DNA from: a virus
Length of the DNA: 64,000 nucleotides
Strand: one strand, 5' to 3'
Virus record (IMG/VR): IMGVR_UViG_3300045988_121635
Shown: positions 3,642-64,000 of the stretch, one piece after another
Layout of the letters: every line of letters starts with the position of its first letter
Position numbering within the stretch: the first letter of the stretch is position 1
Translations under genes and position numbers: made by a program
Notes under the pieces: model-generated
The model's database searches: none
What the model saw: only the letters and a program-made list of their open reading frames with translations
What the model was told of the DNA's origin: nothing

Positions 3642-3651
3642 TATAATGCTT

Positions 3652-3770
3652 GACATACTCCCATCGCTAAAGCAAACGGGATTCTTGGATACAAACGTAC
3701 GGAACCCCCGGTTTTACAATCGTTGGAATCACCCGCACTTTCCAACTCGGAAATGCCCTTCCGAGGTCGC
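3652..3770 (-). mobile_element. orphan copy of IS200/IS605-family right end / TnpB-omegaRNA scaffold (no tnpB); ~85-90% identical to 12182-12300 and retains a decayed TnpB C-terminal coding remnant (RKGISELES...)
   Basis: TTGACATACTCCCATCGCTAAAGCAAA(C/T)GGGATTCTTGGATACAAACG... aligned by eye with the 3' end of the tnpB element at 12182; translation of minus strand gives RKGISELESAGDSND vs TnpB RKGISELESKSNSSDSN. Confidence 0.75.
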
Positions 3771-11762: not shown

Positions 11763-12202
11763 GAAATACATTCAGTTATCATTTTTTAATAACATATCTT
11801 ATGAAAACACAAGAAGAATATGCCCATGAAATTGACGAAATCGTTCGCCGGGATGTAGAGAGCTGCCAGAGTGACTGGTTTATAATCGACAAGGAGATAT
11901 TTATGCAGCCAGAGAATAAGAACAAGGCATTTATTTTGGGAACAAGAAAGACCGGGTGCGATATGATCGTACTTGGAGGTACTAATTGCAGTGGATCCAA
12001 TATGGATTGGCTTTTCGGTTGCCTTGGCAATGAAAACTTCTATGTATGCCAGCCAGTATCTTTCTATAAATCACAACAAGAAATCCAGAAAGTAAATCCG
12101 CTTTATGCTTTCAAGGTGGCCACTGCTTATTTTAGAGAACAAGGGAAGGTTCCGGTATTTGAAGATAATAACTGTAGATTATTGACATACTCCCATCGCT
12201 AA
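11744..12202 (+). CDS. hypothetical protein whose last 7 codons (LLTYSHR*) are supplied by the IS right end, so its 3' end is altered by the tnpB insertion
   Basis: stop codon TAA lies inside TTGACATACTCCCATCGCTAA IS terminus. Confidence 0.45.
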   Translation: MLEFLLRNTFSYHFLITYLMKTQEEYAHEIDEIVRRDVESCQSDWFIIDKEIFMQPENKNKAFILGTRKTGCDMIVLGGTNCSGSNMDWLFGCLGNENFYVCQPVSFYKSQQEIQKVNPLYAFKVATAYFREQGKVPVFEDNNCRLLTYSHR

Positions 12203-12380
12203 AGCAAATGGGATTCTTGGATACAAACGCAAGAAACCCCGATGTTGCTATCGCTGGAATTACTCTTGCTCTCCAATTCGGAAATGCCCTTCCGAAGTAT
12301 ATTACGGGCTGCAAGAATATCACGGTCGTTAATTGCGCCGCACGCTGGGCACACCCACGTGCGGTCGCGTAACGACAGTC
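12182..12380 (-). ncRNA. predicted omegaRNA (reRNA) scaffold overlapping tnpB 3' end and IS right end; guide would continue into flank below 12182 (minus strand reads ...GGGAGUAUGUCAA|UAAUCUACAGUU...)
   Basis: established TnpB architecture; terminal hairpin TCCCAT-C-GC-TAAA-GC-AA-ATGGGA at 12190-12212 seen; extent inferred. Confidence 0.5.
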
Positions 12381-13374
12381 CTTTATTAATGCAGCCACAT
12401 TCACAAGTTTTGGAAGAAGGATACCATTTGTCAATCTTGTGTATCGTTACTCCATATTTTGAAGCAACATACGTAAGTTTATCAATAAAAGAAGAATGAC
12501 TGAGATCGGAAACTTTCTTTCCCCACAAACGTTTCATTCCTTCAATGCTTAGATCTTCAATGAAAATATAATCATATTGTTTGCATAACTGATGAGCTAA
12601 TTTCCATTGAAAATCTGATCGAAGATCGTTTATTTTACGATACGTTTGTTGAAGTTCAAACAGTTTCCTTCTTCTATTATTGGATCCTTTCTTTGCATTA
12701 GAAAGCCGTTTGTTTAGTTTTCTAATCTTGTTTTGATATTGTTTGAAGAATAGAGGAGAATCAATTTTGCTACCATCGCTTTTAGTTAAATAAGTTTTTA
12801 GTCCAAAATCCAATCCTATAGATGCACCATCATGTGTCTTTCTATAAGAGCTTATAGGATTATGATCTGTAACTACAATCAAACTAAAACGTGAACAGGT
12901 TTCTCTAACTATTCTAATTTGTTTAACATTACCTTCGTAGCCTCTACTGTATGAGAATCTAAATCGTTTGTTTCCTTTGTTAATTGTTAGACAATTCCCA
13001 TTTAGGGTAAACCCACCTTGTTTGAAAACAAAAGAGTTGAATTTCTCCGGTGATTTAAACTTAGGAGGTCGTTTAGCTAACTTCTTAAAGAAACGATTAT
13101 AAGATTCATCAAGACGTTCAAGTATTTCTTGTGTTGTTTGAGAATGAAGAAGATTTCTTTTAATTCTTTTGGCAAAATACTTCTTCATTTTGCCAACTGA
13201 GATATATTTCCCAAACAGTTTGTGATACCTACGTTGTAGAGCTAACGCATGATTCCATACAAAACAACATTCACGAAGCATCTTGTCAAGATACTTCGTT
13301 TTCCTGGAATGGTATATGTTGTATTTGTATGAAATCATTTTTTTTATCTGTAATTTTGATTCAAAATTAATCAA
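12199..13374 (-). CDS. tnpB: TnpB (OrfB) RNA-guided endonuclease of IS200/IS605 family: RuvC-like motifs (IGLDFG, IFIEDLS, NDRDILAARNI) and CxxC...CPACG zinc finger
   Basis: 391-aa ORF; motif order D...E...Zn-finger...D typical of TnpB/Cas12 ancestors. Confidence 0.9.
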   Translation of the reverse strand: MINFESKLQIKKMISYKYNIYHSRKTKYLDKMLRECCFVWNHALALQRRYHKLFGKYISVGKMKKYFAKRIKRNLLHSQTTQEILERLDESYNRFFKKLAKRPPKFKSPEKFNSFVFKQGGFTLNGNCLTINKGNKRFRFSYSRGYEGNVKQIRIVRETCSRFSLIVVTDHNPISSYRKTHDGASIGLDFGLKTYLTKSDGSKIDSPLFFKQYQNKIRKLNKRLSNAKKGSNNRRRKLFELQQTYRKINDLRSDFQWKLAHQLCKQYDYIFIEDLSIEGMKRLWGKKVSDLSHSSFIDKLTYVASKYGVTIHKIDKWYPSSKTCECGCINKGLSLRDRTWVCPACGAINDRDILAARNILRKGISELESKSNSSDSNIGVSCVCIQESHLL

Positions 13375-13432
13375 ACCAATTCATCTACCTACTAAAGTAT
13401 GGTGGTTTTGTTGGTTAAATAATCATAAAACT

Positions 13433-14914: not shown

Positions 14915-15699
14915 GTAGTCCATCTTATTTTATTAATCACATAATTAAAAACAAGAAAAATATGAAAAATCTAATTATTGTTCCGTTTGATTTAAATACG
15001 GCGAGAAAAATTAAAAGCGAAGAAATAGAAGGTTCGGTATTAATTGATAATATTGAGATAGAATTTGTATATGAGTCGAAAGACCGCGCCGGTCCTTATA
15101 ATTTACTTTTTGTAAGAAAAGATGGATATGGAATAAGTGCTATATATGCCAACACGGAAGGTTGTACTATTGGCGGCACCACTCTGGAATTGAAAGTAGA
15201 GGCTGGGGCGTATTTCAAGAAAGGAGATGTATTAACAAGCACTAATGGATATCAATTCATATATGATGGAATTATTACCAAAGGGATAATGGGATGTATA
15301 TGCGGAATGGCAACATTTGGAGATATTGGGTTTGATTACAAATTATGGACTCATGTGTATGACGAAGATAAAAAACGGCATGTAAGAAAGGCTATAGAAG
15401 AAGAGAAGAAATTTTTAGCAGAAAAGATTATAAAAGTCGAAGACAGTAGAAAAATAGATATAATAAAACGATATTTAAGTGAATATGAGTATCTATTAGA
15501 TGAGATGCCGAAACGTGACTTCAAACCATTTGAACGAGTGCTGGTAAGAAGAACTAACCAAGAGAGGTGGAAATTGCATCTATTTTCCAGAGAATCAGTA
15601 GGAGATAATAAATACGAATGCTTAGGAGGGGTAGGATTTAGTCAGTGTATCCCATACGAAGGGAACGAACATCTTTTAGGAACCAATAAAAACAAATAA
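14905..15699 (+). CDS. hypothetical protein; N-terminal domain paralogous to 15704..16054 N-terminus, C-terminal ~60 aa paralogous to 16150..16434 C-terminus (FKPFxxVLVR...EGNEHLLGTNKN)
   Basis: alignment by eye of translated ORFs. Confidence 0.6.
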   Translation: MGVSSPSYFINHIIKNKKNMKNLIIVPFDLNTARKIKSEEIEGSVLIDNIEIEFVYESKDRAGPYNLLFVRKDGYGISAIYANTEGCTIGGTTLELKVEAGAYFKKGDVLTSTNGYQFIYDGIITKGIMGCICGMATFGDIGFDYKLWTHVYDEDKKRHVRKAIEEEKKFLAEKIIKVEDSRKIDIIKRYLSEYEYLLDEMPKRDFKPFERVLVRRTNQERWKLHLFSRESVGDNKYECLGGVGFSQCIPYEGNEHLLGTNKNK

Positions 15700-16149: not shown

Positions 16150-16434
16150 TTGGTTGACGCATTAAAGGCAAGCAAAGAACCTGAAGCTAAAGAGTATCTG
16201 AAACGCTTCTTCGGGATTGAAGAAAAACCGAAATATGAGTTTAAGCCGTTTGATAAAGTGCTGGTAAGAAAAGAAGGAAATAAAAAATGGAATATCAGTT
16301 TGTTTGCAAGGGAAATTGTGGACGATTATAATGGATTGCCTTATAAGTACGAATGTTCCAATGGAACATTATGGGATTATTGTATTCATTTTGAGGGTAA
16401 CGAACATCTTTTAGGAACTAATAAAAATGGATAA
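16150..16434 (+). CDS. hypothetical protein, paralog of C-terminal domain of 14905..15699
   Basis: shared FKPFDKVLVRK...HFEGNEHLLGTNKNG. Confidence 0.5.
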   Translation: MVDALKASKEPEAKEYLKRFFGIEEKPKYEFKPFDKVLVRKEGNKKWNISLFAREIVDDYNGLPYKYECSNGTLWDYCIHFEGNEHLLGTNKNG

Positions 16435-57525: not shown

Positions 57526-58410
57526 TTAAGCAAACTTGCCATATTTTAGAAACACATTTTTGAGTTTTCCTTTTATACCATTTAAGGTCACTTCATATCC
57601 GGAGCCTGTCATGTATATGGTTTGTTGATTGATTCTATCACCAGAATACTTGTCTATGAAATAAGACCTATACACTCCATACCCTTTAACTACAACATTA
57701 CTATATAGCTCCCATTTGCCAAGACCGTTCCTAAACATGAATTTAGCTTCTTCAAGGAATGAGCGAAGATTCTTTTCAGCAATAATAACACCATTTTGCT
57801 CTAACTTCTTTGCAATATCACGAATCAGCCACATATTGTTATGGTCTACTTTCCTAAAAGACTCGGCAAATTCTACATCGGGCTTGTGTTCTTCTATTGT
57901 TTTCAAAGCTTGTTGCTTCTCTGCCTCTGCCTGCGACTTTTCGGCTATAGCTCTCTGAGCAGCTTCATACTGATCAGCCCAGGCTCTTGCTGCATCTGCC
58001 GGATTAGAAAAGTCAGGGACCAAAATTCCCTTTCCACCGGAACTTGTTTTATATTCTCCTGTTTTACGAATAGAAGGAAGAACCTCAGATGTTACCCATT
58101 TCTTAAATCTCTTAGCAGACTCTAATTTTGAAGATAATATAAGAGAATATAAACCAGATTCATTAATTATTCTTATACTATCTATATATCTGGTTTTCAA
58201 TATAGATCGTTTTACGCCCCATTGATTATCAGATACTTGCAAAAGCATAGAATCATCATCATCTACATGTCTTTTTACCGCATCTTTAGCATTTATATAT
58301 CCAAGAGATTTAGCCACATCTGACGCCACAAACCAAACATCTCCTTTTGGATCTACAATAATTCTAAGCTCTCCAAAATCCGAACTTTCAAAAACAGAAA
58401 CTTTATCCAT
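57526..58410 (-). CDS. Bro-N domain antirepressor-like protein (FESSDFGELRIIVDPKGDVWFVASDVAKSLGY)
   Basis: Bro-N N-terminal signature. Confidence 0.7.
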   Translation of the reverse strand: MDKVSVFESSDFGELRIIVDPKGDVWFVASDVAKSLGYINAKDAVKRHVDDDDSMLLQVSDNQWGVKRSILKTRYIDSIRIINESGLYSLILSSKLESAKRFKKWVTSEVLPSIRKTGEYKTSSGGKGILVPDFSNPADAARAWADQYEAAQRAIAEKSQAEAEKQQALKTIEEHKPDVEFAESFRKVDHNNMWLIRDIAKKLEQNGVIIAEKNLRSFLEEAKFMFRNGLGKWELYSNVVVKGYGVYRSYFIDKYSGDRINQQTIYMTGSGYEVTLNGIKGKLKNVFLKYGKFA

Positions 58411-59119
58411 GATAAAAAAAATAGGCCCAAAAGAGAATGTCAGATCCCACTATGACAAACCCTAATGAGCCAAAAATATCTTTCAACATCAAACAACCAG
58501 AGGTGGGATCTCGTTGTTCATTGTTTCTGGAGCAAAGATAGGAACAGGATTTTAAATAGCAAATATTTTAATACTTTTTAAATCAAACCAGGGCCCGCAT
58601 CACTGCGAACCCTGATCTACACTAATCTAAACTAATACCATGAAAAACTTAAATCTAAAAACTAAAGAACACACAAATATATGAAAATGTATGCCTTTCA
58701 CAAAGAATCTGTATCCTGTTCTTTTGTATGATTCAAGACATGGGATATAGTTCTGATACTTAATCCGGTTTGATTTTGTATCAGATTATAAATATAGGAT
58801 TTTGAAACTACAGTTCTTAATTGACCTAAATCATTCATAATGTTTTTTATACATAAGATGAATGCTGTTATTACGTTTGATGGTACTGATTCTCATTTCC
58901 TACTGTTATTAGTTACGTCCGGTTCTTACTTTTTCCTATTTCTATAATCCCTTCCTGAAACTAATATTGCAAACTTAATAAAAATAATTCATAAACAATG
59001 AAAATCTAACTTTTCTTGTATGTTATTGATATACGTGCATATATGAGAAAAGTGAGACTTTCACAAGCCTCACTTCCCAAATTATAACTATGAAAAAACT
59101 ATATATATGTACACAAAAA

Positions 59120-61378
59120 TTACCTACATTCCAATTTATTAAGATCATCCAATTCAGGCTTGCTTACGGTCATGTCTTGCGTCAAGCCAGATCTGTTTTG
59201 GTATGGAGCGTAATCGGTTTCTACCGTCTTAGCCTTCTGAGTAGAATCGTATTTCACCTCTGATTCGGTTCCTGTCAGATTTTGGTAGATAGAGCCGGAA
59301 CTACTCTCGCTTACTTTAGACCATATCTTATTACCTACTCTTATAAAATTATCATAAATACCTTCGGCTGTTATAACACCATCTTGCTCTACGATATTAG
59401 GGCCCGATTTTTCTTTTAACAAATACGGGTGCCTGGTGTAAAAATAGTGTTCAAAATCATTCCCGGCATACGAAGGGTCATACTTCTCCAAATAAAACAA
59501 TTCTGATAAAGAAGGGTCGGTACTGGTCATGCTATAATCAAACAACATCAACCTGTCTTTTCCAGATAAAGATAATTCTATTGATTTCAAAATATCAGGA
59601 TCATCAGAAATAAGGCCCAAAGATGGACCAGGTTTGAAGTCAAGATACTTATAGGCATTATCATATAATTTTGTTTTATGGAGTTTGTTGTCAAGGTAAG
59701 ATTGGTATAAATCGAATAAGGATAATGGGTTTTCGCTATCTTGTTTTTTGTTCATGTATCGACTATACTCCCGATCCACATCCACGTAAGGAACGTCAAG
59801 TACCGCCGGGTGACCAAACGCCATCCTGGTCATTATCATGTCCTCCGTGTTCTGAGAATCCATGAACGATCTGACGTATTTTTTAATGGAATCCATGAGC
59901 GTATTATTATCTACGTTCCGTACTTTCTCTTTATCCAAAACGCCGTTCTTAAAACAAGATTCAGGATATATTTTAGTAGAAAAATGAGTTAGGTTGTGCT
60001 TGGCTAACACTGTTGATATTTGATACATCTCGTTAATATCATCTTTGCTGATCCTTTGATATAGATTATCTCCTACCTTAAGCAATGAATGTTTCTCAAA
60101 TGCCTCTACTGGGTCTATATCGGATTCAGAATAAACGATATTCAAATTATCCATATACTCCGGCAATAATTCAGAATAATAATCTGTGCTATCACCAAGA
60201 ACATCATCTATAGAAGATACCAGCGTTGGAGCATAATTTACATCATTATGCCTGGCCACATAAATATCAAGATCCAGCATCAAATTATCTATCTTATTCA
60301 AAGATTCTTCTGTGCCATCATAAGTTTCCGATGTCCCTATTATATCTATGCCAAACCACGTACAAGCCTCTTCTATATCCCATATCATGCTTCTTAAATC
60401 GGATTCGGTGTCGGCATTAGCCCTATGTAAATAAGCCGATATACGAGCTCTTAGGAACTCTATTTTGCCAGGATTGTAATAAGACAGATCTTGTAGCTTA
60501 GACAAGGATCTTCTCTTGCCTTCTACCACATCATCCCCTTCTATGTTTATTACCGGAATCTTATTCGTAGATGAGAACTCATCAAACATAGATTCGGCAA
60601 ATTCTTTATCAGAAACGAATTTCTCAACCAGTTCAGGATATGAATTTCTCAACGATTCAAAAGCAGATGAAAATTCAGAAAAGTTTTTTATGCCGGCTAC
60701 TGTTTTGCCCATAGCCCAATAAAGCTCAGAAGGATTATATGGTACTTTTTTACCAAATTGGTTAAACACTCCCTCCTTGTAAACAATAGGACCATACTGA
60801 TAGTCAACAGACATAAAATAATTATCCTTTTCCCTATCATGTTCGTTAATAGAAGAATCTATTAACTTTCTCATGGAAGTCGAAACCTCGTTTAAAACAG
60901 AAGGATCGGATAAAATACGACTTATTTCTGTTTCATCATACAAACCGGATCTCCTTAATTTCTGCTCATTCAGTATCAAACTGCCATCTACATAAAAATC
61001 GAAGAGAATAGCATTAGACAATGAAGACGCATTGAAAAAATAATGAGTAGACAAAAGGAAATCCCTTACATCCTTAACATCCTGAGCCGTTAAAGGATCA
61101 GCAAAATAAGTCTGACGCTTCATATACGACAGCACATCTTCTAAAAGAGGTTCGTCATTGGGATCGGTGTTAAACATCTCCCCTGGAGCCGGGTTATTCC
61201 AATGACCGTAATACGACAAAAAACCAGGAGTGTAAGCCTTAGCCCATACCTGAAGAGCCCGCTCGCTGTTTCCTAATACTTTTAAAGCACTTTCGTAAAG
61301 GACGGAAGGCTCCCCGTTAGGAGCCTTAACCCGTTTTATTTCATTTTCCTTTTTTTCTATCTGACATTTGACACCCAT
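59120..61378 (-). CDS. large hypothetical protein (752 aa from ATG 61378; ORF track starts at TTG 61399)
   Basis: long ORF; start region duplicated at 62033-62060. Confidence 0.65.
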   Translation of the reverse strand: MGVKCQIEKKENEIKRVKAPNGEPSVLYESALKVLGNSERALQVWAKAYTPGFLSYYGHWNNPAPGEMFNTDPNDEPLLEDVLSYMKRQTYFADPLTAQDVKDVRDFLLSTHYFFNASSLSNAILFDFYVDGSLILNEQKLRRSGLYDETEISRILSDPSVLNEVSTSMRKLIDSSINEHDREKDNYFMSVDYQYGPIVYKEGVFNQFGKKVPYNPSELYWAMGKTVAGIKNFSEFSSAFESLRNSYPELVEKFVSDKEFAESMFDEFSSTNKIPVINIEGDDVVEGKRRSLSKLQDLSYYNPGKIEFLRARISAYLHRANADTESDLRSMIWDIEEACTWFGIDIIGTSETYDGTEESLNKIDNLMLDLDIYVARHNDVNYAPTLVSSIDDVLGDSTDYYSELLPEYMDNLNIVYSESDIDPVEAFEKHSLLKVGDNLYQRISKDDINEMYQISTVLAKHNLTHFSTKIYPESCFKNGVLDKEKVRNVDNNTLMDSIKKYVRSFMDSQNTEDMIMTRMAFGHPAVLDVPYVDVDREYSRYMNKKQDSENPLSLFDLYQSYLDNKLHKTKLYDNAYKYLDFKPGPSLGLISDDPDILKSIELSLSGKDRLMLFDYSMTSTDPSLSELFYLEKYDPSYAGNDFEHYFYTRHPYLLKEKSGPNIVEQDGVITAEGIYDNFIRVGNKIWSKVSESSSGSIYQNLTGTESEVKYDSTQKAKTVETDYAPYQNRSGLTQDMTVSKPELDDLNKLECR

Positions 61379-61379
61379 A
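61352..61379. repeat. 28-bp exact direct repeat TTTTTCTATCTGACATTTGACACCCATA (second copy 62033-62060); on minus strand encodes ATG-GGT-GTC-AAA-TGT-CAG-ATA-GAA-AAA
   Basis: read directly. Confidence 0.9.
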
Positions 61380-61419
61380 GTGATAAATATTTTAGACAAA
61401 GATAGTATAAAAATAGAAA

Positions 61420-61999
61420 TTATGAAACTTCTATTTCATAATGCGAAGCCTCTGTCTCAACTATCAATCTTCCCTCTCCTTCGAACTCAACGCTATCATT
61501 TCCTGGACCAGTAACAAAAGGGAAATCAGATACGGATGTTACATAATCTCCAGAACCACCGGAGAAAGACTGACTTTTACTTTGTTTGTAATTGATAGTC
61601 AATTGTGTTTTACCTATCTGAAGAGTTCCAGATAAATTTTTAGTATAAGTAGTGGTAGTTGTAATATCCCCATTTTTATAACAATACATTATAAAGGTGG
61701 TAACCGGACTCTTTTTTATATTACTATCCGGACCTGCATGATAAGATTCATTCCCTCCAAATATGCTATAAATGTGACAATAAGGACCGACTCTTTTACT
61801 TGAAGTTTTAGCCTTATCCTCGACTCCTTTCAAAGATATAGTAACCTTACTCTTGTATTCAATATCCTTCCAATTACAGACTCCTTCACTTACGTTTCCA
61901 ACAAACCTGTCATCAACATAAACCTCTATATTCCCCCTGCTGATTGGTCTTCAACTGATACTGAACAAGACTTGAAACATCTTCGTATCTCCTTCTCAT
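61420..61999 (-). pseudogene. frameshifted paralog of 62085..62615 gene: ATG 61999 (MRRRYEDV...) runs 28 codons to a stop; downstream frame (opens 61950, TTG 61833, through 61420) joins if one G is removed from the G5 run (C5 at 61933-61937)
   Basis: manual translation of both frames; paralogy KR-PY-C...I-I-GP...D with 62085 gene. Confidence 0.45.
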
Positions 62000-62033
62000 A
62001 CTTAACACTCCTTATTTAACTCATTTATCGAAT
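61987..62033. repeat. 47-bp direct repeat (2 mismatches) of 62603-62649: C-terminal codons + RBS (AAGGAG) + ATG AGA AGG AGA start of downstream gene
   Basis: aligned by eye. Confidence 0.85.
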
Positions 62034-62084
62034 TTTTCTATCTGACATTTGACACCCATAATAATTAACTTTTTTCAAAATTAA

Positions 62085-62615
62085 CTATAAAATCGACTTA
62101 TACAATGACGGATCCCAAACTCCTTCTATATAAATCTCTGGAAAACTCAAACTGCCATCACGAAGAGTGGTAACCTTCAAACTGGGAATGTTAAAAACAG
62201 TGCTAACATCACTAAACTCACCATTCAACTTAATAGCATTTCCACTATTATCAGCTTCATAATAATAATAACAATAATTTTCATTAATGTTTGGATCATA
62301 TTCGTACCAATATGTTAGATCCTGTATATGATTTTCTATATTACCAATTTTATTTTCGCCTAATATAAAAATACCATTATTGCTATGATTATAAACCATA
62401 GAATCATAACCACCATAATTCCAATTACTATTAAACATTATGTAACTAACATCAGAATCATGATCTTTTAATACAGGTCCTATATGTATATGAATTTTAT
62501 TAAACTGACATACATAAGGTCTTTTCCTTCCAAGCCTTTTTATATCTTCATTGGATAACTTATTATAACATCCTCCCACGAAATTATCCGCAGCATTAAA
62601 AAATCTCCTTCTCAT
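62085..62615 (-). CDS. hypothetical protein (MRRRFFNAADN..., Tyr/Asn-rich), start at ATG 62615
   Basis: ORF; AAGGAG upstream. Confidence 0.55.
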   Translation of the reverse strand: MRRRFFNAADNFVGGCYNKLSNEDIKRLGRKRPYVCQFNKIHIHIGPVLKDHDSDVSYIMFNSNWNYGGYDSMVYNHSNNGIFILGENKIGNIENHIQDLTYWYEYDPNINENYCYYYYEADNSGNAIKLNGEFSDVSTVFNIPSLKVTTLRDGSLSFPEIYIEGVWDPSLYKSIL

Positions 62616-62617
62616 AC

Positions 62618-63988
62618 TCAACACTCCTTGTTTAACTCATTTATCGAATCCGAATTATCAGAACCTTCTACAAGATTCTTATTCCTATCTATCTCTTCCT
62701 GGCTCATGTTACTCATCATATTTTGTATTTTTCTACCAGATTGAGATAAAGAACGGATGAATGCACTGGAACTTATCTTAACTCCAAGATCCGGTTTTGC
62801 CCTAAACGCTTCACCGGTACTGATATTATACAAATCATACACACCTGAGTTCATATAGAATTTATATATCCAGTTTCCACCAGCTTTTTTGTACCCTAAT
62901 TTGGTTAGCTCGACTACACTCATACCAAATTTAATACCATTACGACCCATTATCTTCTCCGGTATAGGTTCTACCTTAGCCGGAACAGATGTATATGCTT
63001 CGTCACCACCATACAGGAAATAAGGGGTTGTCACCCTTGATATGTGAGTAAGCGGTTCTTCGGATATACGAGGCTCGTCTTTTGCGGCCTTAGATTCTTT
63101 CCTTGGATTGGATATTCTAATAAAAGGATCGTATGTCAAAAAGGTTAAGCCGTATTCTACTTTATAACCTGACACGCCGTCAAGATCCCTTATAGCCTTA
63201 GTCGTATGTGAGTGGTTGATGGTGTCTATCCCGTACCTTGATTCCATATCGGTCATAATACTATTAACCTCATCTCCCTCTACATAAACCTCTTCTCCTT
63301 CCGGGATAGAAGTTGTGCCGGCAGCCCTTCTAAGTAGCCATAAAGTAACTTCGGAAATATCAGAGAACTTATCTCCGTTCTTTCTATAGTTATCTACTTT
63401 TCCTTCTTGAGATCCAGGTAATTCGACATTTCCTTCAACTTCGACATTTGTTCTGGATTGTCCTTTGCCTTCTCCATCTCCCTTTTTATCGCCATCTTCC
63501 TCAGCGCGTACTGCACCGCCTTCTTCATTAGCCTGTGCTGTACCACCTCCTGTGCTTCCTTCTTTCTCATTATTTAAAATATTATCTGATTCTGACTCTA
63601 TAGATTCCACAACAACATCATACTCTGGAATGCCGCTAAGGAAATCTGCTACATTATTCAAAAACTCTATTTTTTCCTCGTTTGTCATATCAAGGCTTTC
63701 CACTGGCTCCCATATGGCAGGCAAGTTGTTTGTTTCTATTGCAGTAGAAACATCTTCTACAGTTTGGTTGTCCACCGTAGGCAAAACTTTAGAAACCAAA
63801 CTATTGATATCAGATTCCATTTTTTCTACTTCCTCTTTTGTGCCATATTCTTTTAGGGTATCCATGCCATTGACTCTAAGAGAATAATTCAAAGCCTTGC
63901 TCGGAACAAAATTAATATATTTCAAAAAGTTTTTCAACTCTGATATAATTTGTTCATCAGATCTTGGCCCAACATAATCAACCACCAC
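62618..63988 (-). CDS. hypothetical protein with acidic/Gly-rich middle region; start falls 12 bp before the window end, so the N-terminus may be incomplete
   Basis: ORF 456 aa. Confidence 0.55.
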   Translation of the reverse strand: MVVDYVGPRSDEQIISELKNFLKYINFVPSKALNYSLRVNGMDTLKEYGTKEEVEKMESDINSLVSKVLPTVDNQTVEDVSTAIETNNLPAIWEPVESLDMTNEEKIEFLNNVADFLSGIPEYDVVVESIESESDNILNNEKEGSTGGGTAQANEEGGAVRAEEDGDKKGDGEGKGQSRTNVEVEGNVELPGSQEGKVDNYRKNGDKFSDISEVTLWLLRRAAGTTSIPEGEEVYVEGDEVNSIMTDMESRYGIDTINHSHTTKAIRDLDGVSGYKVEYGLTFLTYDPFIRISNPRKESKAAKDEPRISEEPLTHISRVTTPYFLYGGDEAYTSVPAKVEPIPEKIMGRNGIKFGMSVVELTKLGYKKAGGNWIYKFYMNSGVYDLYNISTGEAFRAKPDLGVKISSSAFIRSLSQSGRKIQNMMSNMSQEEIDRNKNLVEGSDNSDSINELNKEC

Positions 63989-64000
63989 CTGATCTGTTTG

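Follow-up and report, generated by a model that had tools for sequence, protein, structure and literature searches.

Two unrelated genes at one slot of a crAss-like gut phage, and a tandem of both probably formed by illegitimate recombination

Results

Layout of the locus

The stretch of DNA analyzed here (the window) is 64 kb of one strand of the IMG/VR virus record IMGVR_UViG_3300045988_121635, in which the genes between 59 and 64 kb all lie on the minus strand. In this region two small genes, here called A and A', stand head to tail between the 3' end of a giant gene annotated as encoding a "structural protein" (STR) and a conserved gene of 752 amino acids (aa), and their boundaries are marked by two pairs of repeats of 47 and 28 nucleotides (nt), u47 and u28 (Table 1). 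Elsewhere in the phage population either gene occupies this slot singly, and the arrangement in the window is probably a tandem of the two, formed by an illegitimate crossover, in which A' was later inactivated by the insertion of one G.

A megablast search returned a single match among phage records, crAssE-Sib (OR575929, 151 kb, human gut), at 95% identity; this is an epsilon crAss-like phage of the proposed genus Epsilonunovirus (PMC11054128). The window comes from an epsilon crAss-like gut phage of the same proposed genus; epsilon crAss-like phages are abundant in human guts and uncultured, and for most of their genes no function is known. From 58000 to 62033 the window is collinear with crAssE-Sib at 96% identity and the next aligned block runs from 62603 onward at 81%; crAssE-Sib lacks exactly 616 bp, which correspond to gene A and the orphan 28-mer. 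Its slot holds A' alone, intact at 192 aa (WOZ57302), with a GGGG run and five residues that differ from the A' of the window. Other neighbors near the slot are annotated in crAssE-Sib as structural, repressor, and antirepressor proteins.

Table 1. Features of the slot and its flanks in the 64-kb window
Feature	Position	Strand	Remarks
STR, 3' end of giant "structural protein" gene	62618..64000	-	Runs off the window; crAssE-Sib WOZ57301
u47 copy 1, native	62603..62649	-	Last 20 nt of STR with stop, AAGGAG ribosome-binding site (RBS), ATG AGA AGG AGA (MRRR) start of A
Cassette gene A, 176 aa, intact	62085..62615	-	Absent from crAssE-Sib
A-type intergenic spacer	62061..62084	-	Travels with cassette A
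u28 copy 2, orphan	62033..62060	-	First 27 nt of the 752-aa gene plus 1 upstream nt; ends in the A-run of that gene
Leader mini open reading frame (ORF), 12 codons	62021..62059	-	MGVKCQIEKFDK, then stop; product of the fusion
u47 copy 2, ectopic	61987..62033	-	STR tail, RBS, MRRR start; heads A'
Cassette gene A', 192 aa if intact	61420..61999	-	Here a 28-codon stub and a 137-aa ORF (61420-61833)
G5 run (C5 on the plus strand)	61933..61937	-	+1 G insertion in a G4 run; inactivates A'
A'-type intergenic spacer	61380..61419	-	
u28 copy 1	61352..61379	-	True start of the 752-aa gene
752-aa gene	59120..61378	-	Conserved right flank of the slot; intact in 146/147 relatives

The two copies of u47 differ at 2 positions (96% identity), whereas u28 is exact and extends to 42 nt at 88%. 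Both repeats are direct, with no significant inverted repeats around the cassettes; neither occurred once in 100 dinucleotide-preserving shuffles, and neither has an additional copy anywhere in the window. The ectopic u47 and the orphan u28 share a single base, 62033, where on the coding strand ATG GGT GTC AAA TGT CAG ATA GAA AAA runs directly into TTC GAT AAA TGA, followed by AAGGAG and ATG AGA AGG AGA. Units are thus arranged head to tail, and at the novel junction between them stretches of both flanking genes recur. The initial annotation of this DNA had placed the repeats, their fusion, the C5 run, and the stop after 28 codons correctly. Its 456-aa gene is in reality the 3' end of STR, a gene of about 2,100-2,250 aa that continues beyond the window edge (2,208 aa in crAssE-Sib; gene calls of 2110-2248 aa on related contigs), and its 759-aa gene is 752 aa long when begun at ATG 61378, inside the 28-mer, as it is in the relatives including crAssE-Sib. 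Rfam gave no match at E<=1 within 60800-63200, and a scan for promoters and terminators found no more sites than expected by chance.

One slot, two genes across the phage population

IMG/VR contains 153 contigs that encode A and 73 that encode A'. When a sample was anchored on the start of the 752-aa gene, its 85 informative loci carried A (52), A' (22), the tandems A'-A (6) and A-A' (4), or an A broken by an insertion sequence (IS; 1), with no third cassette and no empty slot among them. Loci retrieved with A or A' as the query comprised 78 with A only, about 50 with A' only, 8 with A-A', and 10 with A'-A (on 9 contigs); these counts are not proportional, as only the best 80 matches to A were kept. 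Non-homologous alternatives occupy one position between the same STR and 752-aa flanks in otherwise collinear, close genomes.

The flanks do not follow the cassettes. A u47 unit heads A or A' in all relatives, identical u47 and u28 variants adjoin either cassette, and single-nucleotide polymorphisms (SNPs) in u47 are unlinked to cassette type. Because the flank SNPs are unlinked in this way, we infer that cassettes are swapped between genomes by homologous recombination in the flanks. In its A', the window shows 99.5-99.8% identity to other A-A' contigs and to some A'-only contigs; in its A, identity is approximately 95% to other tandems with the same junction (J1, below) but 98.8% to one A-only contig, and the A protein is matched residue for residue on four contigs. 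This is how a phage population looks when it recombines freely and two unrelated genes trade places via short conserved flanks.

The neighboring genes vary as well. The 752-aa gene has a second, strongly divergent allele (73-74% nt identity) in the same population, present in L115/L116 and in five "Ap*" loci (including L140 and L149); it keeps the first 27 nt of the gene and forms another mosaic module adjoining the slot. On the STR side, approximately 300 nt of the window (63083-63390, a Gly/Glu/Asp-rich stretch and what follows it) are missing in L002 and L138 as an in-frame indel polymorphism, and the part of STR around this position is just 81% identical to crAssE-Sib compared with 96% downstream of the junction. 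The cassettes themselves also occur in rearranged form: protein P0022 (115 aa, from a 21.9-kb contig) joins residues 1-63 of A in frame to residues of A' from about 140 to 192, presumably the product of a deletion within an A-A' tandem, and P0014, P0018, P0036, and P0047 are further internally deleted variants of A and A'.

A and A' as proteins

Alignment of A and A' at the DNA level (MAFFT) confined their identity to the flanks, with none in the gene bodies. The best BLASTP match between the two proteins (E=0.057 over 33 aa) is out of register, and the in-register match consists of MRRR only. Profile comparisons with hhalign, using either shallow alignments or a diverse A' alignment, aligned 6-7 residues (within residues 1-7) with a probability of 1-4%. 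An exhaustive HMMER search of 1.84 billion representatives with the A' profile recovered a distant family of proteins of 170-225 aa with 25-36% identity, which share an N-terminal beta-rich domain and mostly start with MRRR; the A family was absent from these matches. In a word-indexed search of 5.8 billion proteins, A and A' matched only inside their own phage lineage, and for A no homologs were detected beyond it. Searches of Pfam, PHROGs, NCBIfam, PADLOC, and the PDB returned nothing above noise for A, A', or the 752-aa protein, and no genomic context for two of the distant A' homologs (P0064 and P0076) was found in IMG/VR. These comparisons do not support A and A' as paralogs, as the initial annotation had called them: what they have in common is MRRR, four codons that lie inside the 47-nt repeat.

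Two junctions join the cassettes

In the window the cassettes meet at junction J1, between 62033 and 62032, where GAAAAA is joined to TTCGAT on the coding strand. This fuses the 752-aa gene, cut after its nt 27, to the final 20 nt of STR. The same junction, GAAAAA followed by TTCGATAAATGAG, is found in all A-A' contigs, two of which have single-base variants. Contigs with the opposite order, A'-A, carry in all but one case a second junction, J2, in which GAAAAA is followed by TAAGAATCTCGTAGAAGGTTCTGATAATTCGGATTCGATAAAT; J2 keeps 52 nt of the STR tail, not 20, closes the orphan ORF after 9 codons, and is identical in the contigs that carry it. Searches with junction-specific 22-mers detected 6 J1 and 9 J2 in IMG/VR and 5 J1 and 4 J2 in JGI metagenome contigs, with no third junction type in either set; in total, J1 is present in 8 IMG/VR contigs and 5 metagenome contigs from different studies. 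At both junctions the break in the 752-aa gene falls within one and the same A7 run, and the microhomology at the joint is 1-2 nt, which points to illegitimate recombination. The suggestion that the locus bears the footprint of recombination between gene starts is right.

Recurrent knock-outs of A and A'

Loss of A' is not peculiar to the window. In IMG/VR, A' is disrupted in 11 of 69 contigs (16%) and A in 9 of 96 (9%), as against 1 of 147 for the 752-aa gene and 0 of 147 for the final 900 aa of STR (Fisher p=2e-5 and 1e-3). The rates are approximately 0.28 lesions per kb in A' and 0.18 in A versus 0.003 in the neighbors, so that, per kb, the excess of knock-outs in the two cassette genes over the genes beside them is about 60-90 times.

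The 137-aa A' remnant of the window recurs as an identical copy on 71 contigs. In ten contigs from different studies that carry it, the 5' part of A' is broken in every case, by at least eight different lesions. The G run has expanded to G6 or to G9, one deletion has removed 47 nt and another 1 nt, and TAG nonsense codons stand at position 16 in two contigs, at position 21 in two, and at positions 20 and 25. Other A' lesions in IMG/VR include a G9 run, an A6>A7 slip, an inserted T, and two nonsense alleles. A TnpB element homologous to window 12182-13432 has also entered A' three times independently, at sites equivalent to window positions 61917 (L139), 61740 (L144), and 61720 (L150). Gene A has been broken by T5 and T7 slips in its T6 run, by nonsense alleles, and by an insertion element. 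Across the population the homopolymers are polymorphic in both genes, with G4, G5 (the insertion), G6, G9, and A6/A7 in A' and T5/T6/T7/T9 in A.

Among intact copies the ratio of nonsynonymous to synonymous substitution rates (dN/dS) is 0.30 for A' and 0.21 for A, which indicates that these copies are under purifying selection; the ratio for the 752-aa gene was set aside as unreliable, because the ungapped comparison had mixed two divergent alleles. Taken together, recurrent knock-outs and purifying selection on the intact copies indicate that A and A' encode working proteins that are often dispensable. They are thus probably conditionally dispensable accessory genes and not essential virion components.

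The slot of relatives is a repeated landing site for TnpB elements. The window itself contains an element of the IS200/IS605 type with TnpB (NF040570, 243 bits) at 12182-13432 (ORF 12199-13374, minus strand), as well as a solo copy of the end of such an element at 3650-3767 (118-125 nt, 79-93% identity), and TnpB genes have been mentioned in some Epsilonunoviruses (PMC11054128). In L002 (4560-5947) a different TnpB element (358 aa) lies between A and the 752-aa gene, and the same upstream sequence is present at four other loci. In L266 another element replaces most of A, and protein P0021 is a read-through from A' into an element.

Five distinct nonsense alleles of A' (codons 15, 16, 20, 21, and 25; window-equivalent about 61925-61957) all create TAG, and TAG reassignment is found in other crAss-like groups (PMC7886860). 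We considered and rejected recoding of TAG here: TAG is the sole stop one substitution away from the codons affected (CAG, GAG, and TTG), the window has no tRNA genes, gene A itself terminates in TAG, and the adjacent late genes are free of in-frame stops in 147 contigs.

One reading of this variability is a dedicated system for cassette shuffling or phase variation, in which switching between A and A' would be a programmed form of bet-hedging. Four arrangements of the slot exist, one contig uncouples junction type from gene order, the tract lengths at the 5' ends vary (G4/5/6/9 in A', T5/6/7/9 in A), and the knock-out alleles look young, the 137-aa remnant being identical on 71 contigs. The repeats are direct and not inverted, however, and only two fixed junction types occur; A, A', and the 752-aa gene have no match to an invertase, integrase, or other recombinase family (other neighbors were not scanned), the basal tracts G4 and T6 are shorter than typical contingency tracts, and most of the lesions (nonsense codons, deletions, and IS insertions) are irreversible. 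We consider such a system quite unlikely. Of the "cassette system" that the initial annotation had listed as a possibility, only the alternation of two unrelated genes at one slot holds, and that in the population; the repeats are direct, there are just two junction types, and no recombinase was found among A, A', and the 752-aa gene.

An ordinary tandem duplication followed by divergence, with one copy decaying as redundant, would also give a unit-junction-unit layout in which pieces of both flanking genes are repeated, and in the window one copy is indeed broken while both proteins begin with MRRR and are of similar size. Against this, the flanks are 96-100% identical and the bodies have no detectable similarity in DNA or protein, and divergence would not spare the flanks alone; moreover, A and A' are each found singly at the slot in hundreds of genomes. 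Knock-outs are also no commoner in tandems (3/34) than in single-copy loci (17/131; p=0.77), and since the two rates are alike, redundancy is not the cause of the broken A' in the window. Duplication is thus very unlikely as the origin of the pair, and the description "decaying duplicate" applies to A' only insofar as the copy is inactivated: it is not a duplicate of its neighbor.

The G5 run and the broken A'

The A' ORF of the window ends after 28 codons (MRRRYEDV...QQGEYRGLC, then stop), and removal of one G from the GGGGG run restores a continuous ORF of 192 aa. As the run has one base too many, reading through it would need a +1 shift, in which one G is skipped, and not the -1 shift that had been proposed. 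Among distinct A' sequences in IMG/VR, 48 have G4-AAT and 11 have an in-frame G5-AT that arises from an A>G substitution (N23D), whereas G5-AAT is confined to the window strain; altogether, 60 other distinct A' sequences read through the site with G4 or the in-frame G5, and three others have a frame-breaking G6 or G9. Of the four contigs that match the A protein of the window, two were retrieved, which are Logan assemblies from sequencing runs ERR1137003 and ERR1137267; over 4.9 and 4.5 kb, respectively, they match the window at 100%, G5 included. As two separate sequencing runs assemble this site identically, G5 is a reproducible allele and probably not a sequencing error.

It could still be supposed that G5 is an error of sequencing or assembly and that the tandem itself arose when co-occurring strains of A type and A' type were mis-assembled from a metagenome. 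Errors are common in homopolymers, the window resembles a metagenome assembly, repeats of 28 and 47 nt fall below typical assembly k-mers and might mislead an assembly graph, and one contig (L292, discussed below) is a possible chimera. The J1 and J2 adjacencies, however, exist in neither single-cassette genome, so an assembly of mixed strains could not create them by mis-traversal of the graph, and they are common to many assemblies from different studies (J1 recurs in at least 13 contigs), so they are not assembly artefacts. For G5, the agreement of two runs is joined by the background rate: a single disruption was seen in the neighboring 5 kb of coding sequence across 147 contigs, a rate far too low to account for the 9-16% seen in A and A'. 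We regard this explanation as highly improbable. Relatives with a single intact copy and a G4 run, which the initial annotation had expected if a sequencing error and an ordinary tandem duplication were at work, do exist, but independent runs reproduce G5, and the additional gene is no duplicate.

A further reading is that ribosomes shift by +1 at G5 as a programmed event, or that transcription slips there, to give full-length A'. The homopolymer does lie exactly where the frames meet, and the downstream frame of 137 aa is open throughout and the same as in functional alleles. This reading is nevertheless hardly credible, and a programmed frameshift is refuted by the relatives: in 60 other distinct A' sequences one continuous ORF passes the site, and with three more that have a frame-breaking G6 or G9 it is no conserved slippery site. 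Elsewhere the 5' region is hit by TAG nonsense codons, deletions, and IS insertions that are beyond frameshift rescue, and Rfam gave no match (no fold aimed at a stimulatory structure was run). In annotations, the frameshift should stand as a genuine pseudogene allele, neither corrected nor called a programmed frameshift.

Other features of the window

In the early or middle region of the window, two ORFs that end 720-735 nt apart (15499-15699 and 16219-16434) share 52-54-nt stretches at 75-80% identity and look like diverged tandem paralogs.

Discussion

A proposed history of the locus

We consider it likely that the locus is a two-cassette slot for accessory genes, that the tandem arose by an illegitimate crossover at J1, and that A' was later lost through a real +1 G. 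According to this history, the slot between STR and the 752-aa gene holds either A or A', two unrelated small genes, in the phage population, each bounded on the left by the STR tail, the RBS, and the first four codons and on the right by the start of the 752-aa gene, and homologous recombination in these flanks would exchange the cassettes among genomes. A single illegitimate crossover with 1 nt of microhomology in the A-run, between an A-type and an A'-type genome (either co-infecting genomes or units of a concatemer), would then have joined nt 27 of the 752-aa gene of the former to a point 20 nt before the STR stop of the latter, leaving the orphan 28-nt and 47-nt copies fused at 62033 and the tandem in the order A then A'. 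The J1 arrangement is inherited and widespread. A different junction, J2, would have given the opposite order in another lineage. In the window strain, A' would have been knocked out afterwards by a +1 G slip in its G4 run. The 47-nt and 28-nt repeats could in principle also delete either cassette and thereby resolve a tandem to a single form.

Several points weigh against parts of this history. A and A' could share a fold and therefore be very old paralogs, and the AlphaFold2 models built from shallow alignments (pLDDT, the predicted local confidence, of 33.4 for A' and 34.3 for A) are unusable on this question. Runs ERR1137003 and ERR1137267 may come from one study or one person, and a systematic homopolymer error is conceivable, although unlikely. 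The breaks of J1 and J2 in the same run of the 752-aa gene could reflect a hot spot or a common ancestral junction that was later remodeled, and two independent events are likely but not proven. Finally, contig L292 (ERZ1027087 NODE-659; low coverage of 4.9, metagenome) has J1 with the order A'-A, which would follow either from further homologous shuffling across the junction or from mis-assembly over the 28/47-nt repeats.

Possible roles of A and A'

Genes that are often knocked out yet kept under purifying selection when intact, as A and A' are, make good candidates for a role in host interaction or counter-defence. A more specific proposal, which we put forward as doubtful, is that the slot is a conflict locus whose alternative accessory factors (e.g., for counter-defence or the host surface) are favored in some Bacteroidales hosts and penalized in others. 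If so, the penalty might come, for example, from sensing by host defence systems, the knock-outs would be repeatedly selected and not merely tolerated, and the tandem would act as a reservoir resolvable to either single-cassette state via the 47-nt and 28-nt repeats. An anti-defence role for A or A' is only a guess.

Comparison with known systems

A diversity-generating retroelement (DGR) has been reported in crAssE-Sib (PMC11054128). We rejected A and A' as its targets, as no second copy of any segment of either is present in the 64-kb window and the lesions (indels, C>T, T>A, G>T, and IS insertions) are not adenine-specific. Inversion systems such as the Mu G segment with Gin or the Rci shufflon were rejected as well, since the repeats are direct and no significant inverted repeats flank the cassettes.

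Programmed frameshifting occurs in phage structural genes, for example lambda G/GT and Ig-like domain extensions. The window resembles these cases in having a homopolymer between two open frames in a late-region gene, but differs in that the frameshift site is not conserved and relatives have a single continuous ORF. The frame-changing G and T run lengths near the 5' ends of A' and A are likewise reminiscent of bacterial homopolymer contingency loci, but here the tracts are short in their basal form, many of the lesions cannot be reversed, and there is no evidence of reversion or of switching within a clone.

Lytic phages may have alternative accessory genes at one syntenic locus, as in ICP1, where CRISPR-Cas and the nuclease Odn alternate (PMC8263062). 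The slot described here is similar in that unrelated genes substitute for one another between conserved neighbors, and by this "guilt by location" the analogy would suggest analogous, conditionally useful roles for A and A'. Unlike CRISPR-Cas and Odn in ICP1, however, A and A' have no matches in PADLOC, Pfam, PHROGs, NCBIfam, or the PDB.

The closest parallel is the modular mosaicism of tailed phages, in which non-homologous genes are exchanged at one position via conserved boundary or linker sequences, as set out in the module theory of Susskind and Botstein and exemplified by the boundary sequences of lambdoid phages. As in such mosaics, unrelated genes occupy one position, homology ends sharply at the gene ends, flank variants are shuffled, and neighboring segments differ in their history, as seen in the 96% versus 81% identity to crAssE-Sib across the junction and in the 752-aa allele at 73% identity. 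What sets this locus apart from usual mosaicism is that both heteroallelic tandems are present, with illegitimate junctions that repeat 27 nt of one flanking gene and 20-52 nt of the other, so that the intermediate is directly visible. The mechanism is an ordinary one, classical modular phage mosaicism at conserved gene boundaries, of which the slot is a well-resolved new example: with two alleles, both tandems, and the exact illegitimate junctions preserved, it offers a clean natural case of phage mosaicism as it arises.

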